A DNA stretch of 64,000 bases from Lingula anatina. Lineage: Eukaryota > Animalia > Brachiopoda. The notes beneath the pieces are model-generated. The model worked only from the letters and a program-made list of their open reading frames with translations, was not told where the DNA came from and searched no databases. The position numbers and the translations under genes were made by a program. Positions 13,605 to 52,968 of the stretch are shown here, one piece after another. Numbering within the stretch: position 1 is the stretch's first letter; every line of letters begins with the position of its first letter. The DNA is taken from NCBI GenBank assembly GCA_051362555.1, contig CM120648.1, positions 3,964,587-4,028,586 on the forward strand, given 5' to 3'.

Positions 13605-14484
13605 GGAGACGGGGGAGGGGGGGGTTGGGGGGCTCAGAGATTCTTTCTTTAAAGAAAAAGAGACGCCCCTTCCCCACCGACTAGCTTACGGTGTATTTGG
13701 CAACCCCGAGTTTCAGATCCTAGATTTGGACATCCACTAATATCTAGAATGTGAACATTGCTGTACAAAACGTATGGTCTGACTGTTCATGAAGCTCAGG
13801 GTGCTAGCTAGAGTCGGGTTATCAGAATACATGCTGTAAACCCTCATAAAGCAATAAAATAATTCACACCGAATACAATGTTGAAAGAGAGAGAGAGAGG
13901 ATGGTGGGGGATGATGGAGAGAGGGAAAAATAAGAGAGCTAGGTCACAAGCAGTAGACCATACAACAGACTGACATCCCACGCAAAAATAGAGAAAAACT
14001 ACATTCCACTTAAACAATCAACCCTGAAAAGTAAAAAAAAAATAGGTAAGCGATGCGTTCAACTCACCTGACATTGGAACCTGACTTTGGCGCTGTCCTT
14101 AAACACCCTCCAGCGTTCACTAGGGGGGCTGAACGTCGGCATGAGGAACCACTGGTGAGGGAAGTACTGGGCGAACAACCGGTCGAACTCCCCGTGCCAG
14201 ACGATCTCCATGCTGCAAAAAGGATTAAAGGCGTTGCCATCAGGCGTGTACAGGGTGGAAGTCTGGGGATCGAAGGTGAACATTTGGGACACGGTGTCAA
14301 GGGTGGTGTGGGCAGGGCTCGGGAACGTGATGAGGCCCGGGGGGGTGGGAGTACCCCCCGAACCTGAACCCGGCGTGCCAAGGGAGGACACGCTCGCGGG
14401 ACAACCCTGCGAGGACGCCGGATCGTACGGTATGATTTGCAGCACCATGGTCGGCACGGGTTCCACGCAGGCTTTGCCGACCAT
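7586..14484 (-). CDS. RTP-like (receptor-transporting protein family) zf-3CxxC protein, proximal isoform, 250 aa; exons 14484-14068, 8610-8440, 7750-7586
   Basis: Phase-0 GT-AG introns (CAG|GTGAGT, tttaag|GAG, AAG|GTCGGT, ctacag|GTC). The spliced protein has RFQCQECGHGWTS...KLYGQQCNRC...HNAELCQACKDGLC, the RTP-type 3CxxC pattern. An in-frame TAA lies upstream of the ATG at 14484. Confidence 0.92.
9383..9430. promoter_or_regulatory. Cluster of RFX/X-box-like motifs in intron
   Basis: gttgcttggcaat, gttgctatgacagc and attgccaagc within 50 bp. Motif match only. Confidence 0.35.
12976..13143 (-). mobile_element. MITE, same family as 6762-6930, 5-bp TSD CGTTG
   Basis: Reverse-complement near-copy of 6762-6930; cgttg on both flanks. 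Confidence 0.85.
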
Positions 14485-15044
14485 ATTGTAATGGAGCGTC
14501 GTCGCGTTGGTTTGTTTTTAACAGGGATTTTGACGCGGTTCTCTACCGAGGCGGTGAATCTACAGAGTGCTGCCGTATGTTTAAGAATAAAGTCGGATTA
14601 GGCCTATGTTGTGCATAAAATGGAATGATACTCTCCGTTCCGTATTGCGCCTGTCTTTCACTTGAAATATAGTCAAATTATTTGTTATTTCTGTTTTGTC
14701 GATAACACGTGGAAATGGCAAATATCCGTGTTTCACCAGCAGTCATCCACCGTTATCTGTGGGCTCAATTTTATCTTCGGAGTAAAGTTATTACTGTCAA
14801 TCTCCCGACTCGTTTAACTCGTTTCAAATTGCGGAGTCGATTTTATCTCAAACACGATGAAATGTTCTGTCATGTCTTTTTTCTTGGTAGTTTGTTAGTG
14901 CACGTTGGTCAAATAAAAAGAAAAATGTTCGACTCAGACCCGATTTGACTTGATGTCGTGAATGAAAAAATTAAAAAGAGGACGTAGTGCAACTTGAGGT
15001 GATCCCGGACGCCGTCCTTTTCCCTGTGGTTTTGTTCGCGGAAT

Positions 15045-15210
15045 CTGTCGTCTGCTTCACAAATGCTGCCGTTTGCTTCACAGAAGCTGTCGTCTGTTGC
15101 TTCACGAAGAACCAATGCCTGTCTCACAAGGCCTGCCGTCTGCTCGGCTCGAATGAAACTGTCGTCTGAATTTACCACAAGAACTGCCGTGCTTTGGCTG
15201 TCGTCTGCGC
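15045..15210. repeat. Imperfect tandem repeat of a CTGYCGTCTG core (about 7 copies) upstream of the RTP-like ATG
   Basis: Units such as ctgtcgtctgcttcacaaatg / ctgccgtttgcttcacagaag / ctgtcgtctgttgcttcacgaag. Confidence 0.7.
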
Positions 15211-15663
15211 CGCCTCCTCACACAAACCAAAACCGTGCGCTCAGGTTCCGAAGTTAAACGCTAGTGACACGACAAATCCACGTGTTATTACAGGCCCACA
15301 TCTATATTCTGTAAACAGACTGAACGCAGCGCCACTACCGCCGGGTGTCAATCTGCGCAACATCCGCGTCACGATTTCATAACAGTGATGTTCACAACAA
15401 AACAAAAAAGAGGTCCTCTCCTATTAATGAATGTTGATGGCGGTTTCGCCACACGAGATATATAACTACATACAGCAGTTAAGTAACAACTAATGCTTCG
15501 CTGTGTGCGACCGAGGCGCTGGAATGGTCAAAAGTTCGCTCAGTGTCAGTGTCGCAAGGGCCGCACAGTGTGTTCCCGTCTTTTATGTAAACGTATGTCT
15601 TTCTTAATGTGAACTGAACGTTGATGCGCCAACCACAACCAGTATCTTTGATTGTTTAGAGTG

Positions 15664-15683
15664 TTTTATAACCCCTATATATT
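15664..15683 (-). promoter_or_regulatory. Candidate TATA boxes of the proximal RTP-like promoter (another at 15458-15465)
   Basis: TATATAGG and TATAAAA on the - strand ahead of a CpG-rich stretch leading to the ATG at 14484. Confidence 0.35.
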
Positions 15684-16845
15684 ACCACTCAAAGAGAGTC
15701 TGAGTAGGTAGAAGAAGTCCACTTTTTTCAAGGGCTCCGAACCAACAAGATAGGAGATTACGCGATGGTTGAAAACACGCCTCACTCTAAAAAGTTGATT
15801 TTGTCATGGGCATTTTCACTGACAGCCTTTTTTCTTTTATTTTAACATGGACATGGCTATTTTTGATAAAACCGGTCCTCAACTGTTGTGAGAAGCAAGT
15901 ACAGCCAGGGTACGGTAGCACCGGAGCTGCTATGATACATTTTCTATTGTCGTGTCCCAAAGTATGTATTTCTACGTAACTCCCACGCTGACGGGGACAC
16001 TTCTTTTTATTCACAACTGAAAGTGGCAATTTCGTGTTGGGGCGAGGAGCACGATCCATAGTATACAGGCACAGTGCGCGTCCTTTTCAGCACAACTAGA
16101 AATTATTGCAATTGTGTCATGATTCACTAGCATCCGGCTCATATTTGTCAGAGCAAGACAGTGCTGGGGCAAAAGGGCCGCTACGTTCACACACACACAC
16201 GCGCGCACGCGCGTCAAATGTTTCCTTTTTTAGTTACGATTTACCGGTCTGCCACATTTGTACTATTATATTTTCCGAATGATTACATCCCTGTTCGCAG
16301 ACATTATAGAAATTATGAAAATTCCAAAATTCTGAAATAAATGTGCTTTCCAAAGACCCAAGCAAGTCAATAAGAATCTAAAAAGGACCTAGGCCATCCT
16401 TCTGCGTTGGCGGGGCTTTATCTATTCATCACTTTTAGATCAGTTAACACGTTGCCTAAATTATGTTTACTTTGCTACGAAAATTGTGTCAGAGTGTGTG
16501 GTTCATTTCATCGACAGTCACGTCGCTTTACCCGGATCCTATCACGTGGAAACGTGTTTCCATGTCGTTAGAGAGAGAGGCTGATTGTACATAGATTCCC
16601 ACTAAATAATTTCATTTCTGGCTGAACAGATAGATAAAGGGCGAGATAAGGGGCAAAAGTGACCTTTTTACTCCCTTAGTTGACCTAACCTGAGAAATAG
16701 AACCTAGATATATTTTTTAATGCAAAGAGGACCTTTTCCGGTCAAGAGGGGTGTTCTTTCGACCCCACCCCTCCCTAAAGATCATTTCAAATGTCATGTA
16801 GGGTTAATAAAAGACTATAAATATCATTCTCTCTCTCTCACTCTC

Positions 16846-16877
<32 letters not shown>

Positions 16878-17157
16878 TTGGGAAAGGCTTTTAAAATCCT
16901 ATAATAATCTCTCTGTCGAAAAAAACAAAACTTGGAAGACTCATACCTGAACAACGCAGTTTAATACTTATTGATATTATTAGTCGCCCAGCACAATGAA
17001 CAGGCACGCACACAAAGCATATGCTACACGTATTATCTACCCTTGGTTCTAGATTTCTATATTGCCAGCTCGATCTTGATTTCATATATAACCCACATCA
17101 GCAATACTGTAAAGCGAACACACGAAACGGTATAGTGAGCAGGCTAGCTTCAGACTG

Positions 17158-17410
17158 GGTTCCCATCCCTAGATCGATCTAACAGGATCGGTCCATCTCC
17201 AAGGGGTCCCTCGCTTTATTGCTCTCAGCCCAAGCGGCTTAGACGTCTGGGACGCCCACTAAAGCTGCTAAACGATAGTTAGTTACCCCTATCAGCCTCA
17301 GCAGACGTGACAGACATCTGACCCGCCCAAGTTAATTGCAATTAAGCGAGAATCCCCTCGGAGATAGTTCGATCCAAAGTTAGTACGATAGTCTCTGGGA
17401 ATGGTCTCTT
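17158..17410. mobile_element. Palindromic MITE, diverged member of the family at 40469 and 62191
   Basis: Shares tagatcgatc...ggggtccctcgct / gcgagaatcccc...gatcc...ctgggaatg arms with the other copies. Confidence 0.6.
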
Positions 17411-20400
17411 ATAATGGACACTCAGGGTAGTACTATCACGCTTTCGACATAAAAACACCAAAGGTAATTTTTATGTCTATTGTGAGGAGGACTAGAAAAT
17501 TAGAAGTATATTTTCCCATCCAATTTTCATAATGTGTTTACAAAATATCAATGCCACCTTGCGCTGCCTAACAATAAATTCACCAGGAACTTAAAAACGA
17601 ACAAATGAAAAAATAACTGAAAAGAAGAAAAATACTAGCCTTGGGGTAATAGAAATTTCAACAAAGGCATGGGGCTTCTTTTTGTATGTCAGTAGTTAAG
17701 GTCCACCAGCTCTGTGGAGTGGCCGTAACAACACCATCATTACAAATCTCTTTCTGTGTTATTTACGGCCGAAGAGACATATTTATCACGCTAAGTATAG
17801 TTCAGGTGTTAATATCCATAGCTTTTTTTCACGCGGAACAAGAAACGCAATTTTCAATTCAATTAGTGTTTGTGCGTACTGATACCACCTAAGTATTTTC
17901 CTCATAATTACAAGCAGTGACCAGAAGCTATATATTCTACTAAACCTACAGAATAAATAAATAAACCCAGTACAGCAGCATTTCGATATATATATATACA
18001 ATCACCAACAGAAACAAAAAGCGCCCATTACACTTCTTAATCTGTTTATACTGAAAGACAAGTATCTACTATATTAAATTATTTATATATTACTTTTTCC
18101 TTTCTTATACTATGTAAACAAACAGTAGTATAAGAAGTATCACAGACAACCAACAGTGTAAACATTAGACGCTATAAGCTCAATAAAGTTATTATTATTA
18201 TTATTATTATTATAATTATTATTATTATTATTTAATTATTTTTTTTAGAAGTCGTTCAGGACGGAATTAGCTCATTATCTCTTCTACTCACACAGTGTAA
18301 GATTAATTAACTGTGTCGGGAATAACTAATAATACAGTGCGAAATAGTTCAGCTGCCAAAAGAACCGCATATAAAAATGTATTAGTACTGCTGCCATAAA
18401 ATATTGTCAACACATATCCTGTACCTTGTCAAACAATATCTCCACACGCCGAGTCTCTAACGTAATCCAAATATATTAATTTGTCAACATTTATGATTTG
18501 AAACAATTTACGTTTTTATCGCCATGAAAATTGTTTGAATTTAGTAAGGACATGTAATTACCGTAAATTAGCAAGAGTGACTGGAAGTGAACAGAGACAT
18601 GTATGGCACTATATCATATTTGTTTTCCTCTAATTTTCCATTATTTCATGCAGTTTTTCATATCAACGGGCATATTGCAGGCAACCATCATACATATTTT
18701 TTACCGATCTTTTGCAGGTTTTACTATCCTGCGTGATCCCCAATTTTTAAGGGTAGAGACTGCCGCCAATAGTGGCCGCCAAGGGGCACGGAGTGTTTGA
18801 TATGTAGTGCGGGTCACTACGATAATTTTCTGTGCATAAACATCAAATCACATTCTTCTAGTCACACAATTGTTCTTTGTCACAAATATATCATAAATAT
18901 GCGTGATAATTGCTCCTTTTCTCTGACTGGAGACTGCGTATGCAAAATTATTACCCCTTTTTTATAACATCATTTGGCATCTTGTTAGCAGCAGCTCGAT
19001 TTTTTCAATAGCTTAGCATGCAATATGGACACTGTATTCAAAGATGAAAAGTATCCTATTTTTCTCGGAGGAAAAAAGGCATTTTTCCTACTCACACGCC
19101 ATTGCTCTATCCGTACCTGCACGTAGTTTCCATATTTAATATCAATAGTAATTCAATTATTTAGATCTAAATGGCCACCATGGCTTCCTTTGCATCTTAG
19201 AAGAAATCTCGACATCAAGTAAATTTATTTGAGGGGATTTATGGTTTTTTTAATTATAAGTTCGGGATCGGAAATTATAAGTAGAATTACGGCATATGTA
19301 TGCATAGAAAATGTGGCTATTTGACATGTCTAAAAGCATGCATTATACCTTAAATTCCAACGAGTTTAACATGACAAAATAGTCGTTAATACCTTCACCG
19401 GTATGTGAATGGTTTGCCATCTATGTCCCTGTGGCTTTTACATTTTCAGTCAAGGCATACATTTGATATATGTTTCATATTGGCTGGCAAGGTACTTCTG
19501 GGTTGACAAGTTGTCTTTAACAACTCCCTGGCACCGGTTTCCATAGCAATTTCTAGACAACAACCAAAACAGCGGTTTGACAACTTGTTGATATATAACG
19601 TGGCACCGCGTCTGGTGACATGTCTATGAAAATTTCATGAATGTGATAAAGCAACTAGGTGTTTTCAGAGAACACATATTTTCAGAGCACAATCAATTTC
19701 ATTTACTCCGTGTTTCGTGCTCTTGCGACCTGTAAGTTGATTGGCACACTCGCACTAACACGCATGCAAGTTCACATACATGAACACAATATACACGGTT
19801 GGAAAAGATAGTCTCCAATAATATTACCAACAAACAGATGCCCGCTCGTGTATGGTAGGGCCTACTGTTTACCCTCGCCGTTCCCAAAAGTCTCTCTTTC
19901 TCTCTCTTCCTCCCTTCCTCCTCTCTCTCTCTCTCCCTCTCTCTCTCTCTCCCTCAAAGAAAAGCAAGACATCCACCAAGTAAAATACAAAAAGAATATA
20001 TACATGTCGTTGAAACATGAAATCCACGTGAATTGATTTATGTGTTTGTTAACAAACAACAGCCACTGAAAATTACTATTTCATTGTATTACAATGTATT
20101 TCAACCGACCCACCAGGCGCTAGCTTTAAGCGTTAACAAACACTGAATGAAATCATGAATGCTATATGGGGGCTCAGGCATTTTTTTTACAAATAGAGTT
20201 GATCAAACGCATATGTGGGTATATTCGCTTTGATGTTCTTTTCAAAAACATACATCTACCATGACTATATCCACTTCCTTTCTGGATAAAAGGGGACTGA
20301 AAACAGAGGAAAATGCACTTACTTTCCAATATACATGTGAATTTCAAAAAATATTTTCCAGCAGCGATGGGCAAATGGGCTCAGTTCTTGACCCTTCATT

Positions 20401-20605
20401 GGCTACACATATGCAAATGCTAATAAACTGATTTTTCATTAGTTGCAGTTTTTACTTTTTTCCCAGAAGCTGTCTGCTGACCTTGGCTGCAGTACATCCG
20501 TTGCCTGAGACTGAAGCTAAGAGCCCGCGCTTAGCGTATCACATTGAGCATGACGCAACTATCGCAATGCCGCGACAACTACTCGGCGACGTCAAGAAAC
20601 GGAAC

Positions 20606-20616: not shown

Positions 20617-23326
20617 TATTAATGATGTTATAATATCACCGTATTAAGTAACCGGGGTCACTGTGTTTTCAGTCGTGTTTTTTAAATGGTCACATACTAG
20701 AACTTGTTCAGGTTCATCGGACTCGCAAAGTAATTTATTTATCAGTGTCAGTCCGAAAGGAGTTCTGTCCGCATGCAATATGCATGGGTTGGGACCCTGG
20801 ACATCAGAAGTCAACGGAAAGATGATCAAACTAAGAGAAACTTGACAATACTGGCGTGTGCTATTTCATTATTCAGAATACACATTATCCGAAATACACT
20901 GTACCTACTACTGATATCTAATAATGTTTTTTTTTTATATCATCATCATATTCTGTTATCTCATCTAGTTCAAGAGGTGAAATAACAAAAGCCTGAAAAT
21001 GCTTTTGAAACAAAAGCGAAACGTAGCGTAGCCGTTTCTTTAAAATGTTCCAAAATAAGAGATAGCCATCACTAAAACGTTTATACAAGAACTTGAAACC
21101 ATGGACAACCTAACAGAAAACTTGAACACGAACTACAGTTCCAATTAACGTACAGGATAAAACTGAAACAGTATGAACCCGATCGAGTTCATCATGCAGC
21201 ACGTTATGCAAAAATCAATAACAGGTACACGTGCACTAACAATAATCATAGATCGAACAAAAACAGCGTATGGCGCAATCTTTAGAACTACTGCACTTGT
21301 CTTGCCATTGATTCGGTAGGTACCTTAAGGCGGCTTAAAGGGTATAAATAGACGCTGACCTAACGATCACACTTGGCCAGGGTTACACAGTGCGTCAGAA
21401 CCCTGGACACATCTTGATTCGGGACACTGATGATGCGTTGTTTGTTGTACAAGGGAATATGACACACATTCCCACCTAAGTGGATCGTCAGTTTTGTAAA
21501 ATGTGTATATGTGTACATGTGTAAAATGTGTATATTAGTTTTAATAAAGCGTACGATTTTGCTACACATTGTTATACATTTTAACCGCACAAAGTATTTT
21601 AAAAATTAGAAAAGTTTGTGTGAAAATTGGCGGGGTTGGGGTGGGGTGGGTGGGGGGTGTAAAGCGAATGCCCGTTATTCTTAGTTGTGTCTTTTTTCGG
21701 TATTTCGAGAAACAAAGACAGAGACAAGTACAAAAAATATATTTACGAGATAAATAATGTAGTTAACAAATAATTGTCTAGGAAATGCACACAAAACGTA
21801 ATCAATACTAATTCTAGCTAGGTACGCTAATTCTCTTTATTATGTAAGTCACAGGTTCCCTATCCTTTCAATTCCTGCTTTTCATTTGGTCGATAGCGCT
21901 ACTTGAAGTCGCCATTGGCAGCTTTATAGTATTATCATTCATGAAATAGGAAAGAAAAACTGAATTGTATCGTTCAGTGCATGCGGCAGTAAGAGCTTTA
22001 GGAAGGTCAAATGTTGCATAGGTGATTATTGTCGAACATTTTACAATTCAGTGAATATGTATTCAACGCGGCCTCCTACACTTTTTTTATTCACACAACG
22101 GCAGCGATAAAAATAGAAAACCACCACCCCACCACCAAAAGAAGTTCACACAAAAGGCGGGAAAAGCACTGGTTACAATCTCTGGCAAAGCTGGTGTAAA
22201 ACATGAGCTGTTTCCAAGAATTACTGCAACCCAACCACAATTTTACACAGTGTCATAATGATTTTTTAAGGAACCTACCACAACCAAAGACGCTGTCGGG
22301 TATTTTACATCTGCCTATTGGTCCTGTGTGAAATAAAATAACACACTCACAAAGGATGAGTAATAAAATATTTTTTTAAATCTGGGAACGAATATCATAG
22401 AAAAAAAGGAAGAATAAATAAGCACACCAGTTGCCTGCCCGATACCAATGTCATTCTTTCACAGATGTCCACAACCCGATAATGAAAATCTCAATACCAA
22501 TGTTCGCCAAAAAGTATTTCAGCAGAAGACGAAAAAAAAACGTCAAAAAGTAGAATTAAAATCAAGGAGTTCCAACAAACTCCTTTCTAAAGTAGGCCTA
22601 AGTTAGGCTTCAACTTTGAATCTTCCAAATATCGCATTGACTAATCACAAAGAAAGGCATTTGAAACAGAAGTGAAAAGATGCTCAAATAAGTCGAATAT
22701 GATTAGCAAAAGCATCGAATACGAAACTGATAAACATGAAAGAGTAGAAGGCTGTTCAAGACTACTTTAAAATGCCATTCTGTCTAATAAGTGACAGTGA
22801 GAGGAAATATGTCACTGAACACGAAAAGTGAGTCTTCAGGAGGCACAAGTCGTGACGTTCATATACATATGTCATGCAACGTCTCTATTTTATCAATACG
22901 AAGCGTAAATACACAGAAGTCACCGGAGGTGATGAACTTTGGGTCCCTGTTGATTTTTCGGTTTCGAATTCTCCCAATAACAAATTAATACTACAGGGTG
23001 AATAGACTTCGGTGTAAGACCACACGTCTCCTCAACCTGGTGCCCAGTCCCGTCCATTGCTTGACCAGAGTGACCGTCACTATCTCTATATGGGGGCAAG
23101 GGGGCTGGGTTCCTTCTCACACAATGGTCTTGATAGATAGTTTGTTTTATTTTTACCAACCGGACAAAACTGGACCTCCTAACCTAAGATTCAACATAAC
23201 CTTATGCTGAATCTTCCCTGAGTGTCAGGGCACTGTAAAGTTAGCTTGCTAACTCTTCATACCTTTTCACGGGATAGCTTCACAGTTTTGCTGATATGGG
23301 GTTTATTGAAATCAAGATCGAGCAAG

Positions 23327-23486
23327 ACTGAAATCTAGAACCTAGGGTAGTTGAATCCGAATCAAAACTGAAATCTAGAACCTAGGGTAGTTGAATCCGA
23401 ATCAAAACTGAAATCTGGAACCTAGGGTAGTTGAATCCGAATCAAAACTGAAATCTAGAACCTAGGGTAGTTGAATCCGAATAAAA
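23327..23486 (+). repeat. Minisatellite, 4 x 40 bp (actgaaatctagaacctagggtagttgaatccgaatcaaa)
   Basis: Four nearly identical units. A single-unit inverted homolog with shared flank lies at about 17030-17090. Confidence 0.95.
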
Positions 23487-24587: not shown

Positions 24588-24736
24588 CCGACTGCACCTG
24601 GTTTAATGGGGGCGCGAGGATCGCCCGCCTTGGACGACTTTTCTGTGATCTGACCATACACGTGTGCATAGGGGTCCGGCATGGGTACGAGTACCTTACT
24701 CAAGGGAGGACATGACACTTCTGCCGCCTCGGCCAT
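24588..24736 (-). CDS. Predicted variable first coding exon of the RTP-like gene (MAEAAEVSCPPL...PIKPGAVG)
   Basis: TATATA at 24974-24982, Kozak aagATGG, and phase-2 donor GG|GTAATT that is in frame with the acceptor at 14213/14212. In-frame upstream ATGs could extend it. Confidence 0.65.
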
Positions 24737-26623
24737 CTTTTCCTGTTCGCAATTTTGGCTGTTACGAATCTTTTCATAACTTTTTAACTCGGCGACTTTG
24801 TGATCTATGTTAGCACCAATGTCGATCATCAACATAATACTGAATTTCACTCTGCTGCCTTTTAGTATAATAATAATTATAATTGTCCGAATCGTATCCG
24901 TGGCTCATAGCGTTCTGACTTTCCGTGGCTGTCACTTCGCCGGTTGGACTTAGAGTAATTCTGGGCGCGTTCCTATATATATGACCTGGCATCAACATCA
25001 ACATTACTCCTACTATCTGCTCGACCTTTCCTGGAGTTCGTGCGCCTCGCTTGACAATTGACAGCAAGCTCTGTTTACATGTTGCAACCGAATTAAATAA
25101 GGAGAGTCCCCCTTTTTAGGCGTTTCTTAAATTTGGCCCGGGCAGGGAACATTCGATTTATCGGATATCCGTTCCTAGGACGTGTAGCGATTGCTTAATT
25201 TGCTGTTTTAATCCCAAAGAACGTTGCTAGCCTGACTAGCTTGCGCAATATTTCCCGGGCTTCAGGTTTTCATTTTCCATTCATAAATGCACACTTGCCG
25301 CTAGAGGGCATGGAGGAGATCCAGGACAAGCTAATTCCGAGAGCTATTGCGAAATGTTGTAGGGGATTGCGAAATTTTGCAACCTGGGTTTGTTTTGTTT
25401 TGTTTTGACTAATTCGGGTGAATGGTTGATAAGAGTCACATGTTTCTGATGAGGACTTACAAATAAAGTATTTGAACCGGAAGAGAATCGCAAACAGAAA
25501 ATTTCACAGAAATAAAACGGTACATTTCGGACAGGTGTCCTTGACAGAAGCCTACTACCCCGCACAGTTTAAAAAAATTAAAACTGAAACTGTCCCTGGC
25601 TTGAGTGTAACGTTCCATCTCTGTATCACAATGCCAAATTAGGAGATGTACTAGCATTACCAAATCTACAAGTCAAAATTCTAGTAAATAATTATCATAT
25701 AAGATGATTTTATAAACAGGTGGGAATCACAATGTACACATGGACTGCCTGATATTCTAACTGACGCCACGTTTATTTTTGACAACGTTATCAAACTGAA
25801 TTCGACAAACCCTAGAAGGGTCAAGAAAGCCATGGCATCTATCACTAAGATTAACAAATCCATACGTGCACGCAGCGCAAAATATTTTAATGCACTTATC
25901 TATTGTTACGACTGACTGGCTGGAGGACATTCTGAAAGACAGACAGACAGACAGACGAAGACAAATTTGCAGAAAACGCTTTTAAGTAACTTATACAAAA
26001 TCTGAGAGTGGTCTTGTAAAACACATAGCGACCAATGAGCCCTTTTCTGTTTCATCTGCATTTGGACTATCTTCATAATTTTAAGCTTTATTACAAACCA
26101 GACAAATCAGCCTACGCCAACACCAAGAATACCAGGAGCGGAATTGAATAGAGTTCAAACCGCTTGCCACCTACGCTCGTTGTGAAATCGACCAGTGTGT
26201 CACACGGGCGTGTGAATGTGAGGTTGAAAGGCAAAGAAATACACTGTTTGCCGAAATTCCACAAATGACACATCGACAATCGTCACGCAACTACATGTGT
26301 AAGGATCAGGCGAATATATACATATGAATATATACATATGAATATATACATATGAATATATACATGTCAGGGGTGGATCCAGGGTTATTTGAAGAGGGCC
26401 CGGGGGGTCCGCAGATGCAAAGCCGACCATCACCCTCCACCCCAACCCACCTCCCTGGTGTGGGGTTCGGGGCCCGTATTTTAGAGGGCGAACGGTAGGG
26501 TTTAGAACTATGATTCAGCTAGTCAAAATTCTAATTTCAAGAGGGGAATATGAAAGTGATTTTCTTTCACATCGAAATCGAAATCGAAGGGGCGGTGGGA
26601 GTCAGGACCCCCTGACACTGCAT

Positions 26624-26657
<34 letters not shown>

Positions 26658-29871: not shown

Positions 29872-29921
29872 CCTTTAAAAAGGCATCCCTTTTCGGGGAC
29901 TTCCTCTGAAGCGGGCGGCAT
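29872..29921 (-). CDS. Predicted variable first coding exon of the RTP-like gene (MPPASEEVPEKGCLFKG)
   Basis: ATG followed by 16 open codons and a strong phase-2 donor GG|GTAAGA; CpG-rich promoter-like region upstream at 30.0-30.7 kb. Confidence 0.5.
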
Positions 29922-34404: not shown

Positions 34405-34575
34405 CAGGCCCGTAGCCAGGGGGGGGGGTTCGGGGGGTTCGAAAGAACCACCCCTTTTGCTGGGAAAAGGTACACTCTGGATAAAATTTGATCAAGGTAC
34501 ATGAAATTTCTGTGGAAAAAGGTCCACTTTTTCAGAAAAAGAACCCCCCTTTTGAAATTGCTGGCTACAGGCCTG
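34405..34575 (+). mobile_element. MITE with CAGGCCCGTAGCCAG termini, 5-bp TSD TTACG
   Basis: TIRs caggcccgtagccag / ctggctacaggcctg; ttacg on both flanks; decayed inverted relative at about 39160-39326. Confidence 0.85.
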
Positions 34576-37806: not shown

Positions 37807-38173
37807 GCTTGTGACGGCGATACCAGCTTCATCCCGGGTTGGTCAGCGGGCATCGGGGTGGTCGAGATGCCACCCACGGGGGCAGTTCCTGTGTACGAGA
37901 CCTCCGTCACAACGGGACAGGTCTTCACTTCATACCCAGAGGCAGTAGCCGTTGTTGCCACGGCAACGGGCGTTGTAATACCCCTGGGGCTAAGCTGAGC
38001 CTGAGACAACGATGGACTGGGTGGCATATGAACCATGACGTTGGGGGTGACGGACGTGCCGCAAACCTCGGGAAGTCGAGAAGTTTCCCGCGGGTCGCGG
38101 TGGTCGGGTTTTACGTGACTGTCGCAACTTTCGGACGACGCTGGCGTCGAGGGCTTGCTGCACGTGCTGGGTG
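37807..38173 (-). CDS. Predicted hybrid first/internal exon of the RTP-like gene (own ATG at 38036; internal acceptor at 38174/38173)
   Basis: GC-rich, S/T/P-rich open frame. TATAA at 38289-38293. Phase-2 donor GC|GTGAGT is in frame with the acceptor at 14212. The frame stays open 60 codons upstream of the ATG and contains ctgac...gcctcctcag| (branch point plus phase-1 acceptor). Confidence 0.7.
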
Positions 38174-40468
38174 CTGAGGAGGCGTTGGCCGTGTCAGTCG
38201 AACAGGTCGTGTCGATTCACGGATGTGTCACTTTCACTCTGCTCTTTAAGCACCTCGCGTTCTCAGCACGCCGATATGAAGTCACCTCTTATAATAGACC
38301 CGCTCTGTATGCTCTGCTTTGAAACCCGGAAGTTATAGCGTATGCCAAGTTCTATCCTAGGAGATCGAAAAAAAATAGGACGTGATTAAAATCAGTACGT
38401 ATAAGGCACTGCTGTGGTATGCGTGGTATGTATAAACACATCTCTTGAAAAAATTTGAGTATCAGCAGTATCATTTATATTTATTGCGCCAATTTAACCC
38501 AAAATAATGCACTTTGCATTATTTCCTCTTATATACTGGAAGGCCCTATAAACTGTTCCTCGTAACAATCTATGGATATTAATATAAAAATCATATACTT
38601 GGATAACTACTTAAGCAGTCTTGGCCTTTATCAGTACAATGAACAATACGTTCCATTACAATTTAAAATGAGAGATGCCGCTTTCGTTATTTTGGCGCGA
38701 ATAAAATGTAGGCAGCTAATTTTCGGGGAGTCTGGCGTATTTCCACTGCTGGTCCGCCACTTCTCTTCCGACTAAGAATAAGTTGTAAGAATACTTTTTT
38801 GGTCAGAATAATAACAAGGGAGAATTTTCACATGTTTTCTTAACAGTTTGCGCAAAATGTTGCCGTTTTGTTTTTTCACCTCGGACAATAGGCCTAGCTA
38901 TTATCATAATAAAACTTAACACAGCACCCCTAATGCAACCAAAGAAAAACCTGACGTTCTTGTCAGTGCCCCTGTGCTCTCTACCAGGGTCAGAGGGATT
39001 TTTCACTAGATATTCACAAATATTTATCTGGCTTTTTCACTGCACATTTCTGAACCAGTGAGAAAATTCGCACAGAACTAACCCAACAGGCCTCTGCTGG
39101 AGAGTATAGCGCCCCTTGGTTTATTAGGGGAAATTGTAAGTAACAGGCTAGTGTTTTTGAGGAGCAATTTCGAAAGGAGGTTTCTTTTACTGAAAAAGTG
39201 AACCTTTTACCATGAAATTTTCGTGCACCTAGATGAAAATTTTACCCAGAGGGGACCTTTTTCCGGCAAAAATGGAGGGGGGGGGGGGTCTTTCGATTCC
39301 CCAGAACAACCCTTGCTACGGGCATGTCGGTTCATTAGATTTGGATGTAAAGATTGTGGCAGTGGTGTTGGTTAGAATCGAAAAAAGAGCTAGGGACATT
39401 TGAGGAAAATATTTCGTGGCCATTGACTCTGTCTGAACCTAACTTAAAGTTGACCCTTTACAAAATTGAAAAGTGGAACCCTAGGCCTGCCCTTTAGGAT
39501 ACAGACATGTGTGGTTACAAATAGGTCCGACAGGTTAAAAGGAAGATGTACGAGAGCTCAGTCTGATGTGCTGTCTCCGTAAGCCAATTTCCAAGACTAG
39601 AGTAATTGGCGAAATTATTCAACAGGTTAAATGTCATTGAGAAATAAAGGTAAAGTACTGTAAATAGATAGGTACTAAGACATCGAAGATTGCAGATTTT
39701 TAACAAAGAAATGCAAGATGGAAGAGTTTTACCAATTTTCGCCTTAACAATAGGTAATGTTCGACTAAAATAGAAAGATGGTTTATCAGTTATAGAACTA
39801 ACTATACAAATATTCCCCTTAGGCACCATAAAATGACTATTAACGTATTTCATACTGTTAAAACTGATGCTCATTCACGACTCAAAACTGTGATAAAATC
39901 TCCATTAGCATTATAAACATATATTTTGACACCGTGCGTGTAGAATCTACTTTCAAGTATTCATTTACCAAAGGAACATTAACAATGATCTATGTAACAG
40001 CAATAGATGTTTATGCAAAACAACAAGGGCCTACGTGCACCATTTTTGATTTTAAAAATATGCCTAGCATGCATTAGAGGAAAAATCTATAAGACAGTTA
40101 CAGGGGCACATATCCATGATATAACACGCCGTGCGACAGTTCCGTTTATAAAATAAATCTGATATGTAGGGCCCTATATCTTAATATCTTTATTTTCTAT
40201 TTATAAAATTACTTATTTTGGTCTGGACCTAACAGAAGCTACGAAAAATCAGGAGATTAAGAATGATAATAAAGAAGGTTATAGAACTATTAAACCACTT
40301 ATAGAACATGGTCCTATAGAAAAACTTCGCTGCGTTGCTGACAACAACTGAAATGTCTTTTTATTCCTCTGCAACATCTACGTGTGCAAATATACATAAA
40401 AATAACATCCCCGCAGCCATTTGGTATACTGAAAAATCTATCGTATCGGTGTCAGTGATAAATGTGTA

Positions 40469-41341: not shown

Positions 41342-41363
41342 CTTTCTTATAAGATCTTCTCAT
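41342..41363 (-). CDS. Predicted short first coding exon (MRRSYKK) splicing to 38173
   Basis: TATAAAA at 41505-41511; ATG AGA AGA TCT TAT AAG AAA G|GTAAGG is a consensus phase-1 donor matching the phase-1 acceptor at 38173. Confidence 0.45.
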
Positions 41364-41814
41364 CGGCTCGGCGTCGCATGAAAACAGCAAAAAAAGTCTC
41401 AAGCGCTGTGGAATCTAGACGACAGTCGTACGCGACTGATTTTTAAAACCTAATGTTCATTCAGCTTGAAGGACAAACTGACTAAATTCCGTATCCAGGG
41501 ATCGTTTTATACACGGGGTAGGGAATGTCTACAGTTTTCCCTCAAGGATAATATGTTACTTAAAAAAGCGCCTTCTTAGAAATACGTAATGTGTTCACAC
41601 GAGACGCCTGGTTGGTTATGATGCCTCTCAGGCACGTGACTTATACTTCGCTTGGTTCTATATGTTCACACACGCATCCCTGAGCACTGACGCATGTTTA
41701 TTTATTTTCTCCGATACTATTTCGTCGCTCTCTGAGAAATCATGACTTATTCATACATGTAACGGACTGTGTAATTAATGTAAATAACAAGGGTGACCTT
41801 GATTGCGAAACGCT

Positions 41815-41852
<38 letters not shown>

Positions 41853-44800: not shown

Positions 44801-45369
44801 GTGTATGTGTATGTATTGGCATATTTGTAGCCTCACCTCTGCTGTGTGATTACGCAAATATAGCTAGCACGGACATGTAAAGAGTCCATACTGCTAATGA
44901 ATTTGCCTAATGTCTCTTTGCTTTTTTTCATTCACAGACCCCTTATGAACATTTATGTAGCTATAAAAGTTTAGCACGGTTTTGAACATATAAACCTGAA
45001 GATAATTGTATCGTTTTGAATATATTTGTATTACTTACATGTACTTCCAGGGACGTGCTACAGGTAAACTGATGTGTCTCGGTTATGCACAAGAATGTTA
45101 AACGGTTCATCAATAAGTGCGATAATCTAAAAGCCAACCTAGCTGCGAAATTGCATCCTTTATTACTGACTTTTAAATCTTTGATCTGAGATTGTTGAAA
45201 ACTTTCGTAAGATATGAGGGTGAGGGCGTGTTGATCATTCCAAAAGCTTCACATTATTTTTGCAAGGGCATTCAAGCTTTTCAACACAAGAATAATGCGT
45301 AAATTCTTCTCTTATACTATACTATATTTCTCATTTCTCAAAACCGTCTTTACAAAATTTTTACTTATT

Positions 45370-47245
45370 TAAATTCAGTATTGACTGAATTTTCACCTGT
45401 ATCAGAAGAAGATGTTTTAGCATTAATGAAAAGCATGAATTCTAAATCTTCTGCCTTAGATCCTGTGCCAACACATATTATCAAAGAGTACATTACTGTT
45501 CTGGCCCCAGTTATTTTAAAGATAGTGAATCTCTCTTTTACAACAGGCATCTTCCCATCCAACTGCAAAGCAGCAATTGTTAGACCCTTGTTAAAAAAAC
45601 AAGGCCTGTGCAAACAAGTGTTTAAAAATTATCGACCAATATCAAACTTGCCCTTCTTAGGGAAGTTTCTTGAGAAAATGGCATGTATACAACTGAATAA
45701 CTATCTAGCTCAAAACAGTCTATATGGCAAGTTTCAATCAGCTTATAGAGAAGGACATAGCACAGAAACAGCTCTCCTAAGGGTTCATAATGACATCATG
45801 CTTTCTTTAGACAAACAAAAAGATGTTATTTTAGTCCTTTTAGATCTGTCTGCTGCATTCGACACCATTGACCACAACATACTTCTGCACAGACTACAGT
45901 ACCGATTTGGAGTAAAAGATTTAGCACTTAATTGGTTAACCTCATATCTAAAAGATCGAACACAAAAGGTGTCAATTGAGTCGTTGCTATCAGAGCCCAC
46001 TATTTTAGAGTATGGTGTCCCTCAGGGGTCTGTGCTAGGTCCATTGCTCTTTTCATTGTATATGCTACCAGTAGAAGACATTATAGTTAAACATGGTCTC
46101 AACACTGTCATTTTTGCTGATGACACTCAAATTTATGTCACAAGTGAAAGTAATCGCTCCATGGCTATCACCTCAATAGAAACTTGTCTAGTTGAGATCC
46201 GAAATTGGATGAAAACAAACATGCTAGCACTAAATGATGGAAAAACTGAACTAATATGGTTTACATCAAGGTCTAAGTCAGACAGGGGAAATGAAATGAA
46301 ATCTGATATTTGTATCGGTGGTGTCAACATCAATCCATCTAGCTATGTGAAAGATTTAGGTGTCACCTTTGATCAGTATGCAACTATGGATAGACGGATC
46401 TCTGAAATTTGCAAATCGGCATCATACTCACTTTGGCGAATTAGTAAGATACGTGACTTACTGGACAAAACTTCAACTGAAAAACTAGTCCATGCTTTCA
46501 TTACTTCTAAGCTTGATTATTGCAACAGTCTCTTATATGGTTTAGGCAAAAATCATCTGAACAAACTTCAATTAATTCAAAATTCTGCAGCTAGGCTGGT
46601 AACTAAAATGGGATGGAATAGCCGAGAGCATATAACACCTGTTTTGATGGAACTTCACTGGCTTCCAGTAAGAGAGAGAATTTTATTTAAAATTTTATGT
46701 GTCATTTTTAAAGCAGTCACCGAGAATAAACCACTTTATATCTCAGAACTTATGAAGCAACATCAGCATGGAAGAGTTACCAGGTCTTCAACTTTTAGTC
46801 ATTTACTTTTAGAACACAGTGTCTTAGAGAAAAAAGCTGGTAAATTTTACGGTGAAAGGGCATTTATGATATATGCACCCAAAGTTTGGAACACTTTACC
46901 CTCTGAAATACGAGCAGCAGGTGACATAGATACTTTTAAAAAGCTTTTGAAAACTCATATTTTTAGAATAGCCTATCAGTAGCTATCATATAGTTAATTT
47001 TAGTTTTTAATAAGGTGTACTGTAATTTTATGATTAATTTTAAATGTTGTCACTTTAGGTTCTTATCATTTTAGAATATGAATAATTGGTTCTTTAAATT
47101 AGTTCTTAGTCCTTTAAAATTGTAATGTGTTCTTATATTAGTATTGTGTTATTTAGCTCTTTTAAGTGAATGTTGTAAGGCGCATTGAGATTTTTAATGG
47201 AATGCGCCATAGAAAAATAAATTATTATTATTATTATTATTATTA
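45370..47245 (+). mobile_element. 5'-truncated non-LTR retrotransposon, L2/CR1 group
   Basis: RT-containing ORF, AT-rich 3' UTR, terminal stem-loop gcgcatt...aatgcgc, then aaataa and an (ATT)n tail. No endonuclease domain or ORF1. No TSD found. Confidence 0.92.
45381..46982 (+). CDS. LINE ORF2 C-terminal part (reverse transcriptase), uninterrupted for 533 codons, no true start
   Basis: NYRPISNLPFLGKFLEK, QSAYR..HSTETAL, LLDLSAAFDTIDH, GVPQGSVLGPLLF, FADD, SKLDYCNSLLYG and HITPVLMELHWLPV motifs. Confidence 0.93.
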   Translation: MTEFSPVSEEDVLALMKSMNSKSSALDPVPTHIIKEYITVLAPVILKIVNLSFTTGIFPSNCKAAIVRPLLKKQGLCKQVFKNYRPISNLPFLGKFLEKMACIQLNNYLAQNSLYGKFQSAYREGHSTETALLRVHNDIMLSLDKQKDVILVLLDLSAAFDTIDHNILLHRLQYRFGVKDLALNWLTSYLKDRTQKVSIESLLSEPTILEYGVPQGSVLGPLLFSLYMLPVEDIIVKHGLNTVIFADDTQIYVTSESNRSMAITSIETCLVEIRNWMKTNMLALNDGKTELIWFTSRSKSDRGNEMKSDICIGGVNINPSSYVKDLGVTFDQYATMDRRISEICKSASYSLWRISKIRDLLDKTSTEKLVHAFITSKLDYCNSLLYGLGKNHLNKLQLIQNSAARLVTKMGWNSREHITPVLMELHWLPVRERILFKILCVIFKAVTENKPLYISELMKQHQHGRVTRSSTFSHLLLEHSVLEKKAGKFYGERAFMIYAPKVWNTLPSEIRAAGDIDTFKKLLKTHIFRIAYQ

Positions 47246-48500
47246 AAGTGGATAACATGGTAGGCCTACCGCTTAAAACGAACTTACATCTAGTAGTTTT
47301 GAAATGTAAGAGCAAAAACACATATGAGCATAAAAAATGTTGAAATGCTTAACTTTCGTCTTTATGTTTGTATCCATGTATAAGATATCAATTTTTTACG
47401 TCTTAAAATGCACGTGCTAGCCGTTAATGTTTAAAAGAAAGAACAGGTTTATATATTGACGATGGGTATTGACTTTTTTCTTTTTTTATTACGTGGGGTA
47501 GAAAACACAAGATCTTTGTGTTCTTTCACACTCTTTCTATACTACTTCCCCCCGCCATCTTCTCTCCACTTCCCTCTCTACTCGTATTAAACCCAGAGCA
47601 AAAATAGCCGGATTTATATTCATATGATTCAAATATTCAGTATAACGGACTGCTTCGTTAATCAGTATCCTACATTTTATACTTCATGTCTTCTTATGTC
47701 TTCCGAGAAGGCATAAATCGCCCGACAATGACAACATACTGCTAATCCAAGGTCGTGTCACTGCCTTGTAACTTGGAATAGACAAGGGAAGCCATTATGT
47801 CTAGTCGGTGTTAATGTATATTTAAAAACTGCTGACTACTTAAGGGATTTTTTTTTCAAGTAAGTCAAGTTTTGGGGTCACTTGTATTTCATGTGTTAAA
47901 TATTAAAGCTTTTTTTCCGTTTGTTCATCACTATCTTCAAAAAAAAAAAAAAAAAAAATTAGAATAAAGAGGTCACATAGAAAATGGCCTAATGACTAGA
48001 AAGATATCTAGCAAATTCTTACGAGCCAGTTGAAATTCACCATTGGATCTAGCACAACCTCCTCTTGTAATGTCTTCAATGGAAGGGGATTTGGAAATGG
48101 CAGGAAAACATAACAGAATTATGATCTAATTAAACAAAATCGAGAGCACATTCTCGTTATTTCTGCAAATAGAAAAATATATATATATATAATAATAAAA
48201 TAAAATAAAATTTAAAAAATTATTTTTAATGAACGTCGCTACCTTTAACTGAATATGCACTCATCTCAATGGGTTAATGATGAAGAAATCTTTTGGGGTA
48301 ATCAATATTCATGGGAGCTAGAGCTCATTCCTTCTGGGAAGGCATAAATCACGTCCTCTTCCATGTGTAAGGTAGTAGGCTTACCAACCGTACGGATGAG
48401 AACACACTGTCACTCTGTCGAATACCAAGTTCAGAAGACCGAGACTATGTTTGTGACAACTTAAAATTAAACTTTTTGAATGTGGAAAATGCACAATTGC

Positions 48501-48544
<44 letters not shown>

Positions 48545-49988
48545 AAAATATAACATTTAACCAGGGTATGATCGGCTGTTTTTAATTAAAAAAAAAAGGA
48601 AAGTCCCATGTTTTTTGAGACACAAAGAGTATTAGAAGGGTAAAGTATTGTAGATAATTTAAAGAGCACAAAGCCCGTCGGATGTCTTTTTAACCTTGTC
48701 AATGAAACCTATGTCAAGTGAAATCTTTTTTATTGAAAAAAATCGGACACTCATTTTCCTGAATCAAAGGGAATGAGACTATATAAAAACACATATGACT
48801 GAGCAAATGACTGAGCGGCCACGATAATTTAGATGCCGACAATGTTCAATTTTTGACTCCGTCTCGTTTTCTGTCATCTACAGCTTCCGAAAATTCCCAC
48901 ATGCTGATAGCATTGCCAGTTTTTGATTCAGAAACTTCTCTTGTTTCAAACTTGAACCTTACCTACGTAAAATTTGCACGTAAGTAAGGATCAATTTTTT
49001 CCTCTTTTCATTCATACATTGGAATCTGGTATATATTATACCAAGACACAGGTCTCTAAAGGCAGCCAAGTGATGACGTCTTTGTTGAACAAAAAATCTT
49101 GCTCGACAGAAATGGGCACAGCTACTGATTAGCCATAGAAATATTTTTGAATATCTGGTGAACAAATTTCTCTCTGTTTCTCTTGTTGGAAGTACTGAAG
49201 GACCCCATGGTTTTCGAGAGCGACAACCTCAAAAGGATTATTGAATGTTTAGTTTCATGTTGTGATGTCAAACCAAGCATAGATAGCCGAGGAATATTTC
49301 AGAAATAATTAGATGAAAAAATAGATGAAATCAAACAGAATTAGATAATATGAAAGAAATAAAAATGACATTAAACAAGATGAAATAATATAAAGTATAA
49401 AAAAATAACTTTCATTTTAACTTTCCATTTCATCATTTACTTTTTTCATCAATCTATTTGTCTATTTTCACATGACTAATTCTTGTCTAATATATTCATA
49501 ATTGATCTATTCATTTATTTATCTTTTTATTTACTTATTTAATTATTTAGATTTGATGTGTAAATGAATATTCACAGCTTTTGAAACTTAAACAGACAAA
49601 ATCTGAAATACACCAAATAAAGAATGCGCGTTGACTCAGATTTTCTTGATAAAACTTTTAAATTTATGGTATTTTGCATAGTATGTTTGTTTTTTGAGGA
49701 AATATTGAATTGTTTGTTTGTTTGTTTTGTTTTTTTTTTCATTTAGTTTACAGTATAATTTTTATTTCACATCCGTGTTGAACACTTAAGTATTTCTCCA
49801 TTGCATAATAGTAACCGTTTTACAGATTGACGTGGAAAAATACAATTTAAAATTCGAGCCCGAAAATATCCGGGTTTTTTGACCAGAAGACAGGTAACTT
49901 TTTATAGAAAAGTGTTTAGGAAAAAAATGGGATTTTCCTATATAATCAATTGTCGGATTTCCGTGTCTAGTATCGGGGCCCTTTTCAT

Positions 49989-50067
<79 letters not shown>

Positions 50068-51197
50068 AGCGCGCGCGCACGCACACACGCACACACACAC
50101 ACACGCACACAGAAATATATAAATAGATCTAATAAATAAATGAATAAATAATTAAAAGTAAAGAAAAATAAAGGATTAAAATAAAGAAATCGAAGGTTTA
50201 GTTTAAAACCGGTTTATGGGTTTATGTGTTGCTCAGGTGTATCTTACCGCAAAATTTAATCTCTTTGTCTAGCCAAGAATCTGATACTTTTTATAGAAAA
50301 GTGTTAAGGAAAAAAAAATATATATATATATATATATATTCTTATCTTTAGTATCATCATCGAGACGGTGTCAAATCAAAGGAAAAGAACAATGTTACAG
50401 CTTCAATAATAAAAGGAAACGGGCCTCTCTCTATCCCTGATCAAAATTTAGAAAAAAGCAGATTTCTCTTGATAGTAATAGATTACCAATATTGGTAAAA
50501 TATCCACGCGTTTTGTAACGAGACTAATAGATATACCAAAAGCATTAAATTAAACTTGCACAATCCCCTCAAAATTTTCAAAATGTATCTGAACGACATG
50601 ATATTAACATACTTGCAGACATCACTGGCGAATATTTGCCTCGCTTAGTTGCACAAATATAAAATAACATATGAGGATAATTTTATCATAATATGTAGAC
50701 CACAGGGATGAAATTTTTACTTGGTTGCATTATTTTGCTTTTTCTACCCTATTTAAAGGGAGGGGGTGGAGGGGAAGACGGAGGGAGATGCGGTTTAGAC
50801 GCTAGGGGAGGGGCACGTACCTCCCCCCCCCCCCTCCTCCGATCCGCCATTGAAACTTGACGTTTACATTTATTGCATTATCAAAATCTCATAGAACGCA
50901 TAATATGGTACATTATCTGTACCCTGGCGTTCAGATTTTATTGGAAACTAATACCTAACCCCCATCTCTATGTTCTATTCCTGAGACCAGCTAGGTGGTG
51001 CATGACTTCATTCCTGTGCAAATATTCTCGTTGGACACAGGATAAGCCTGAAACATATATGAGAATATAGTGGGAAAGCCGTATCCTCTGCTATCAGGTG
51101 CTCCTACACAGTGTACAAAAGTATCGTGTGCGCACAAATTTTTGTTACAGACTACTAGCGCACCCTGTGGTCAGAGAGAAGGAATATCGCCTGTGGG

Positions 51198-51393
51198 AGC
51201 ATTCGCAACCAGTTGATCCACAGACCAACTTGTCCGCGAATTAAATATGAAAGCAAACCGGATTCTCCGCCTCCCAAGCACGCCGTCCCAGCAGGGGCTG
51301 AGCAATTAAATTTCGGCACATGCTTTCAAATGGGTCGCGCCATATTTGATCTACGCACTAGTTAGTCCGAGGATCAACTGGTTGTGAATGCTT
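51198..51393. mobile_element. MITE-like element with about 33-bp inverted arms
   Basis: agcattcgcaaccagttgatccacagaccaact / agttagtccgaggatcaactggttgtgaatgct. Confidence 0.65.
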
Positions 51394-52041
51394 TCTGTGC
51401 CCTCTCCCCCCCCCCCCCCTCCGATAGAGGGTGCCCTCCCTGTGCCGATTCTGATACTGAATTAACGACGACTTGGAGGGTATGCAGGGTAGCAGGAAGT
51501 CATCATCAGAACTATGAAACTCACGGTGTTAGGGAAAAGTATTTTAAACCACGGGGTGACGTCAACTTGTCACGTTTAAAAAAATATTTAAACTACCTCT
51601 AAAATCAAGTTCGAGGTAGGTACTGCACCTGTGTGTTCTGAGATTACGTCATCAGTCTAGCGTGAAACTGTGTCTAAATCTAATATAAGCAGAGTTATGA
51701 ATATCTATACCAGCGCCACAATGGACACTTTTTAATGGTTTCAGTAGCTCCCGGCCGCCTTGATGCAGATAACTGTTATGATTACACAAATCAGTAACTA
51801 CCACAGTAATTAATACCAGACAATTACTTTTGTCGTCTGGAAACACATTATACTAACGGACCAAAACTCGTTAAATAAAAAAAACGCTGTATTGCTAAAT
51901 CATTTACCTGAAAATTGCAGGATTGCGGCGTCCGTGTGAGTCAATTAACCGTGATTAATTCTTTTTGCTGCCTCCGCCAACGAGGAATAAGAAGGCAATT
52001 TTTTATGCCGACTGGATCCTCTCACATGGATGAAGGCTTAC

Positions 52042-52104
52042 CATGCCGCAAAAAGTTCATTCTGCTTCGATCCTGTACGTTAAAACTGACGACGACGTAC
52101 CGAC
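52042..52104 (-). CDS. Predicted distal exon of the RTP-like gene (contains ATG at 52060, MNFLRH) splicing to 38173
   Basis: ttcattttacag| acceptor, 63-nt open phase 1-1 exon, donor G|GTAAGC. A likely upstream exon ends at 52560 (G|GTACTT) in a CpG-rich promoter-like region. Confidence 0.45.
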
Positions 52105-52968
52105 CTGTAAAATGAATAAAAATTTGTCTCAGCGCTAGAGAAATGGAAGAGTAATCTGTCAAACGACAAAAACAGTACTGATTAAGAAATAGGATTGGCA
52201 GACGCTGTTTGACGGATTAGCGTGTTTATGCCTATAGCATATGTATGTAGTGAACGCTGCACGCCTTCAAAGCAGGTTTCGCCGCAGGTGTTTAAGAAAA
52301 TATGCATTTGCTATCACACCACCAAGAAAAAGAAAGAGTATACAAGGTCGATTTATGTTTTGTCAAAAATTCACACCTAGGTACACATGCGCGCAGAGTT
52401 ACAAATCCAAACTTGCGCGCTCGCGAGAATAATAGGGAGACGCACATATGCACATAGAACCCATAACCGAAAGACCCAAACTCACACTCACACACACGTG
52501 TGTACATGAATACATGCACACGCATACACACACACACAGAGCGTATAGACAATAAGTACCGAGGTATCCCCCCTGCTCACACACTAAACCTCCCGAAAAA
52601 CGCGCGTGCGAGAGAGAGCGCGCGCACACACACAAACAAACACGAAACAATGCACATGACCAAACTACCATCATGGTTTTGCACGGTATGGAATAATAAC
52701 AGGTCCATTTATATGAATATGAACATCAATAAAGTAGAAAGGTAATAAACTAGGAAGCTTCAAACCCTACTTCAGTGACAGATGCAGTCACAGCAGTCCA
52801 TTTATTCCGTTAAAGAAAAACATGCGTGTCGTTGTCATGCACGCGACGACATAAGATTCCTTGCACCTGCGCCAGTGATGGAGATGTAGTGCAGGAACTC
52901 TAGGATAATTGCTTCTTGTCACGCTTAAGAATTCTATACAGCGATGTGATTAAAATCACAGCGTGCGG

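Follow-up and report, generated by a model that had tools for sequence, protein, structure and literature searches.

How can one gene place several unrelated N-termini on the same zinc-finger protein, and do those N-termini matter to the protein itself? This question is raised by a locus of the brachiopod Lingula anatina, which we analysed in a window of 64,000 nucleotides (nt), the whole stretch of DNA considered here (contig CM120648.1 of assembly GCA_051362555.1, positions 3,964,587 to 4,028,586). We propose, as the probable answer, that the window holds one RTP-type 3CxxC gene, in which a constant core of 159 amino acids (aa) is combined with at least four unrelated leaders, likely by means of alternative promoters. 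An original prediction, made from the sequence alone, had described unrelated coding first exons that are spliced in phase 2 to this core within a single gene, and this description is borne out by the match to RefSeq isoforms, by the drop in RNA depth at the shared acceptor and by the lack of paralogy among the first exons. All parts of the gene are on the minus strand, and coordinates are positions in the window.

The constant core and its acceptor

The 159-aa core is encoded by three exons. Constant exon 1 (14068..14212, 145 nt) provides the single base that finishes a phase-2 codon, followed by the core methionine, and ends in phase 0. Constant exon 2 (8440..8610) carries the first and second CxxC motifs, and the coding part of constant exon 3 (7586..7750) carries the histidine and the third CxxC down to the stop, with the first AATAAA about 1010 nt further downstream. 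Exon 2 is placed by its match to Pfam family PF13695 (E 2e-10), by tblastn of the RefSeq isoforms and by loose ends of RNA reads that match the exon start. The phase-2 acceptor predicted before the core ATG is there in the sequence, with AG at 14214-14213 followed by C and then by ATG GAG.

Core exons 2 and 3 match PF13695 (zf-3CxxC, RTP-type); the bit scores of the protein for this family are 80.5 and 80, against a curated cut-off of 23, and C124, C127, C162, C165, H216, C221 and C224, which make up the three CxxC motifs and the histidine, are invariant among 62 aligned relatives. The protein ends a few residues past the last cysteine, and no C-terminal transmembrane (TM) segment was found (maximum 19-residue hydropathy 0.86). 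By these sequence features, it has an RTP-type 3CxxC domain as its core and lacks a TM segment. AlphaFold models the core with a predicted local distance difference test score (pLDDT) mostly above 90. The PDB holds no sequence relative of the protein, Foldseek returned no match at E 0.001, and the best VIA structural Z, 5.7, is to unrelated peptidases. There is no second copy of the core within the window. For this reason, a separate 103-aa L. anatina RefSeq model (P0067), which matches the C-terminal core without a difference and lies on the same RefSeq scaffold, is probably an assembly duplicate in that scaffold.

Three distal first exons and their RefSeq isoforms

The original prediction had named three distal ATG-initiated frames closed by phase-2 donors. 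All three donors are present, at 24588 (GG/GTAATT), 29872 (GG/GTAAGA) and 37807 (GC/GTGAGT), closing frames of 149 nt (248 from ATG 24835), 50 nt and 230 nt, respectively. The exons, which we call V24, V29 and V38, reproduce the RefSeq isoforms X1, X3 and X2 with 1, 0 and 0 differences when joined to the core. Specifically, V24 (24588..24835, an 83-aa leader) gives identity at 241 of the 242 residues of isoform X1 (XP_013416701.1), V29 (29872..29921, a 17-aa leader) at all 176 of isoform X3 (XP_013416737.1), and V38 (37807..38036, a 77-aa leader rich in Pro, Ser and Thr) at all 236 of isoform X2, whose protein is common to three transcript accessions. A search with constant exon 1 likewise returned a RefSeq L. 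anatina protein identical over all 48 residues. The V24 match moves the start of this exon to ATG 24835, where the RefSeq model begins, instead of the ATG at 24736 first proposed.

The isoforms X1 to X3 are thus already present in RefSeq, as automatic gene predictions, and it is the exact match to them that sets the three distal exons above chance. Their splice signals alone are not decisive. On an approximate scoring matrix, the three donors rank 48, 11 and 109 among the 2440 GT sites of the minus strand, and a phase-2 ATG frame of at least 50 nt is also closed by 13 of the 109 sites whose scores equal or exceed that of the weakest donor. The promoter motifs predicted for these exons fared unevenly: V24 has a TATA[AT]A match at 24981, but no such match was found for V29 or for V38, which has only TATTATAAG near 38290. 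TATA-like sites occur only at V24, at the candidate exon V41 discussed below and in the region of the read-through leader V0, and the leaders may have separate promoters, the predicted number of five or more being putative.

Use of the acceptor and the read-through leader V0

RNA reads over 13700-19800 were taken from four of nine runs labelled as this species (runs X1, X4, X6 and X7; 6-25% of each run). At 14143, within constant exon 1, the depth is 57 in run X6, 66 in run X7, 2 in run X4 and 0 in run X1, with nearly no core reads in the last two, one of which is from the same study as run X6. The reads of run X6, which is stranded, are consistent with a transcript from the minus strand. The junction between 14068 and constant exon 2 is spanned by 44 reads. 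Across the 14212 acceptor, the depth falls from 57 to an upstream median of 4 in run X6 and from 66 to 26 in run X7, so the predicted use of this acceptor is supported in both covering runs. Because of this fall, we can say that most molecules in run X6 enter at the acceptor, about 93% of the core-exon depth failing to extend upstream, and that about 40% of those in run X7 read through it. The read-through share differs between the two runs (4/57 versus 26/66, Fisher p 2e-5). No loose ends at 14212 are among the 24 of 242 listed, which are dominated by a repeat at 17.0-17.5 kilobases (kb).

The sequence that is read through, V0 (14213..14484), encodes a 91-aa leader rich in Pro, Ser and Thr that continues through the acceptor into the core. 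The resulting isoform of 250 aa is longer than RefSeq isoform X1 and is absent among the RefSeq isoforms found. The last codons of V0 also serve as branch point and pyrimidine tract, making this leader a clean case of one sequence with two duties, those of coding exon and of splice acceptor. Among the 40 of 342 differences listed, all nine fixed differences of run X7 in V0 are at third positions and synonymous (9/9, p 5e-5 against one third), and 26% of the possible changes in V0 are synonymous. In the control region upstream of V0, 11 of 22 differences are at third positions (Fisher p 0.008 versus V0), and the four indels listed near V0 are all upstream of its ATG at 14484. V0 is a fourth coding N-terminus, under coding constraint.

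Upstream of this ATG, a transcribed 5' untranslated region (UTR) of V0 (14485..15331) has a depth of 5-21 in runs X6 and X7 up to the bin ending at 15331 (to 15127 in run X6). It contains four upstream ATGs and acceptor-like sites at 15308 and 15260, and no splice joints are listed within it in the RNA reads. V0 has either its own promoter or belongs to a long exon that starts at one of these two candidate acceptors.

On a separate matter, run X7 has about 3-5% fixed differences from the window over 14213-14910, and run X6 is near-identical to it, although both carry the same species label. Run X7 possibly represents a cryptic lineage.

Several points weigh against the account of one core with at least four leaders. 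The distal junctions into 14212 rest on the automatic RefSeq predictions, with no such joining read among those listed, and V24 and V29 have no detectable counterpart among the fetched relatives. A direct homologue search with V38 for longer proteins scored none of 258 candidates; since the RefSeq isoform holding V38 appeared as a cluster member, this blank reflects a limit of the search. As 40 of the 342 differences were listed, the others may include replacements in V0. Runs X6 and X7 differ in genotype as well as in sample, and given the many fixed differences of run X7, the contrast in V0 share may be one of lineage and not of tissue. Finally, part of the V0 depth in run X6 may be unspliced RNA (intron depth 1-3.5).

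One could go further and regard some distal exons as model artefacts or rare splice noise, leaving one distal isoform and the read-through form as the main products. The chance phase-2 frames at 13 of 109 comparable donors, the absence of distal junction reads among those listed and the small size of V29 (17 aa, no relative found) would all fit. We nevertheless hold this to be quite unlikely, since the sequence-only prediction and the RefSeq models agree on all three exons and since so much of the core-exon depth in run X6 stops short of V0.

The leaders are unrelated to one another

The leaders range from 17 to 91 aa and are predicted to be disordered. None of the six pairs among them beats shuffled sequences in similarity, and blastn among the six exon-plus-upstream regions found nothing at E 0.1, a search that would miss short motifs. 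Paralogy among the first exons is therefore rejected, there being no DNA or protein similarity between them or their upstream regions. The structure prediction, which covers V38, gives its leader a pLDDT of 50-57 and no secondary structure (AlphaFold; 62 sequences), and no Pfam family was found in the V24 or V38 leaders. V0 and V38 are each 40% Pro/Ser/Thr with five S/T-P sites.

These properties bear on the systems to which the locus had been compared. In plectin, the first exons are unrelated and direct the localisation of the protein. Together with NOS1 and the glucocorticoid receptor, plectin belongs to a class in which several first exons are spliced to common constant exons (PMC1885805). 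The comparison with plectin holds, as the Lingula gene also puts distinct short N-termini from unrelated first exons on one protein body. It differs in being an invertebrate gene, in having a switch point that recurs across protostome and deuterostome models, and in that one leader overlaps the shared acceptor. The comparison with protocadherin and UGT1A arrays fails on paralogy. The protocadherin, UGT1 and GCNT2 arrays have tandemly duplicated variable exons that are nearly equal in length, share a promoter motif and encode a folded domain (PMC1885805). The Lingula locus resembles them in having a variable region upstream of constant exons, joined in one phase, but its leaders lack paralogy, similar length and (as predicted for V38) a folded domain, and blastn, which would miss short motifs, found no promoter motif in common. 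Because the first exons are not paralogous, the locus is an example of plectin-like first-exon use and not a protocadherin/UGT1 array.

It would be attractive to see here an array of the latter type, with duplicated specificity exons that diversify recognition, for example in immunity. Besides the variable/constant layout, this idea draws on the antiviral role of vertebrate RTP4 (PMC8172065, PMC12431671) and on a gene labelled RTP3 that is among the top up-regulated genes in amphioxus after poly(I:C), its orthology to the core gene not being shown (PMC5752451). We consider it very improbable. In addition to the lack of similarity among the first exons and their upstream regions, the leaders measure 17 to 91 aa, have no predicted folded domain, and number four and not a dozen. 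The core, moreover, shows about 80% identity between brachiopod and molluscs, which is not what a restriction factor under fast evolution would show.

The switch point recurs in other phyla, and leader classes are kept within phyla

Is the junction between leader and core a peculiarity of Lingula? We compared two of the 2-4 models in each of 24 species sets, comprising every species with two models among the named matches. In 18 of the 24 sets, the change of N-terminus falls no more than one residue from the core methionine; in three sets one model starts at the core methionine, and in three the N-termini are shared. The switching sets come from brachiopod, gastropods, a bivalve, lancelets (four sets, one genus), starfish, sea urchins, horseshoe crab and mite, and because of the taxa they span the 18 are not independent. 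Some are to be read with care: one of the two Aplysia models is of low quality, the Bradybaena pair consists of neighbouring gene models, the two Diadema models come from different scaffolds, and in chelicerates the short leaders may have arisen as artefacts of the models.

Intron phase was compared in brachiopod and bivalves; the leaders of the chelicerate models end in Gly, a hint that the phase may be shifted there. As expected if exon phase is conserved, both bivalve-like genomic contigs (L001 and L003) keep the phase-2 acceptor, its AG one base ahead of the ATG, and also share the downstream donor. A third contig, a spliced complementary DNA, joins at the same point, and a fourth locus, a weak partial match, was left out. 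Methionine occupies the core-Met column in 54 of the 62 aligned relatives.

Certain leaders are conserved as well. One class, ending in LSQR, is kept in gastropods and bivalves, a Ser/Pro-rich class is kept in gastropods, chiton and cephalopods, and two classes are kept in echinoderms (starfish and sea urchins). V38 has a weak likeness to the second of these mollusc classes, class B (z 2.8, 2 of 300 shuffles, one of eight comparisons), which is suggestive only. Since the exchange point recurs across phyla, the layout with a swappable front end appears likely to be ancient and useful.

Among further relatives, the proteins P0280-P0308 are 450-1200 aa long; they carry the core C-terminally, behind very long N-terminal regions without a Pfam family. 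Several of them keep a QAYG motif before the core methionine, like the chelicerate leaders.

In the account of the mechanism, the main rival to functional leaders is that the first exons count solely as promoters and 5' UTRs, with the working protein starting at the core methionine and the leaders being tolerated by-products. The start contexts are compatible with this, as in each of the four isoforms a purine stands at -3 and G at +4 of the core ATG, and G is missing at +4 of the V24 (24835) and V29 starts; so are the retention of the methionine in most relatives and the three species sets with a model that starts there. Because the core methionine has a strong start context in every isoform, a core-only protein is likely also made by leaky scanning. 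As the whole story, though, this explanation is unlikely, because the divergence of V0 is purely synonymous among the listed differences, which indicates coding constraint, and because leader classes have been retained between gastropods and bivalves and among the classes of echinoderms. All four leaders are, moreover, open and in frame with the core.

Candidate upstream exons and the span of the gene

Two more exons may belong to the gene, although their membership is unproven. V41 (41342..41363) runs from an ATG to a phase-1 donor that scores highest of the 2440 GT sites, with a TATA-like site at 41511. V52 (52042..52104, 63 nt) has an acceptor with a pyrimidine tract and a phase-1 donor ranking 10 of 2440. 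Both donors, at 41342 and 52042, are in phase 1, unlike the three phase-2 distal donors. Entering V38 through an acceptor at 38173, either exon would be in frame, and the predicted protein of about 289 aa would exceed in length every RefSeq isoform found (the longest being X1). Through an acceptor at 38066, they would form a 5' UTR with upstream open reading frames of 31-32 aa and leave the 236-aa protein intact. The three X2 accessions fit extra upstream exons or 5' ends, and other UTR differences could also explain them; the route through 38066 fits them better than that through 38173. Of the roughly 45 kb predicted for the gene, a coding span of 30.5 kb stands, and the remainder depends on the candidate V52, which is needed to reach 44.5 kb.

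Read as a whole, V52 is an open exon from phase 1 to phase 1. Directly upstream on the minus strand lies a TRIM-type gene (61449-55136; RING, two B-boxes, a coiled-coil region and two FN3), which ends about 3 kb before V52. With this gene on the same strand and V52 open from phase 1 to phase 1, a TRIM/V52 read-through chimera is conceivable. A fusion with the TRIM gene is not supported by the relatives, as no RING, B-box or FN3 family was found in 44 longer or more distant ones.

Other elements in the window

Between V41 and V52, in antisense orientation, a 559-aa open frame (45303-46982, plus strand) matches a reverse transcriptase (RVT_1, E 2.6e-32) and represents an insertion resembling a long interspersed nuclear element. 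An interspersed repeat at 17037-17500 is abundantly transcribed on both strands in all four runs. It has no Rfam match, and part of it resembles 23238-23350, which adjoins a 40-bp tandem array. Two 172-bp copies (6761-6932 and 12974-13144), 94% identical and in opposite orientation, flank constant exons 2 and 3; their sequence is like that of a short element with inverted ends, of the kind of a miniature inverted-repeat transposable element. Another inverted pair (34405-34562 and 39163-39326) flanks V38.

Discussion

We envisage that alternative promoters would select one leader in each transcript, so that different tissues or stages could produce the same core with a different regulatory tail. 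Splicing in phase 2 would join the leaders of V24, V29 and V38 to the acceptor that lies one base ahead of the core methionine, and that of V0 would be read through the same acceptor onto the core. The leaders would then likely tune localisation, turnover or phosphorylation of the protein. The core likely binds RNA, by its family and by analogy with RTP4 and ZAR1 (PMC12431671).

Like the vertebrate receptor-transporting proteins RTP1-4, the core has PF13695, and RefSeq names the isoforms RTP1-like and RTP4-like. RTP4 consists of a zinc finger, a disordered region and a TM segment (PMC12431671), whereas the Lingula protein has no TM segment, and its disordered part is N-terminal and varies by exon. 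Fish RTPs also lack a C-terminal TM segment (PMC8172065). No vertebrate RTP is among the named matches of our homologue searches. The RTP family has been dated to jawed vertebrates (PMC8172065), and invertebrate members have been noted (PMC3639994); in the accessible portions of neither article is the variable-leader organisation described. We found no description of alternative first exons in RTP-like or zf-3CxxC genes in a literature search to which supplements and most subscription papers were outside.

Other systems share single aspects of this gene. ZAR1 combines a disordered N-terminus with a C-terminal zinc finger that is of the same Pfam family as the Lingula core. The fold match of the core to the human ZAR1 RNA-binding domain (9jko) is weak and tied with unrelated proteins (Z 5.0, root-mean-square deviation 4.1, 90 aligned residues, 21% identity; Foldseek E 0.23), and the core differs in an extra N-terminal region of helix and strand (model residues 74-110) that lies outside the match. 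The RTP-like gene Ci8 of Ciona has a Pro/Gly-rich first exon apart from the RTP domain and regulated isoforms, which arise by intronic polyadenylation, the short form being without the RTP domain (PMC3639994). Both genes are invertebrate and RTP-like and have a first exon distinct from the RTP domain, but the Lingula gene uses alternative first exons. Lastly, 80,000 exons of the hybrid first-internal kind have been reported in human (PMC11797052). Constant exon 1 resembles these in that some transcripts enter it at its acceptor, and in others it runs on without a break from the sequence upstream. It differs in that the extension is about 1.1 kb and coding under constraint, and it may instead be an exon with an alternative 3' splice site.

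In itself, the layout is ordinary, because many genes have alternative first exons and RefSeq already contained three of the four isoforms. What appears to be new, from the comparison of sequences, is the depth to which the switch point is conserved in the RTP-type family. It deserves attention that the exchange point recurs in brachiopod, mollusc, echinoderm, lancelet and chelicerate models and that leader classes are kept within phyla. It is tempting to speculate, as a tentative and on balance doubtful extension, that the bilaterian ancestor already had one highly conserved RTP-type gene without a TM segment, whose exchange point was fixed one base ahead of the core methionine. Its disordered leaders, specific to and conserved within phyla (four in the brachiopod, one of them overlapping the acceptor), would have acted as exchangeable tags, for localisation or condensates, on an RNA-binding core with an ancestral non-immune role, and this gene would have been the source of the vertebrate RTPs. 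The Lingula gene offers an isoform panel for questions about the role of the ancestral RTP/3CxxC protein and about the contribution of disordered leaders to it.

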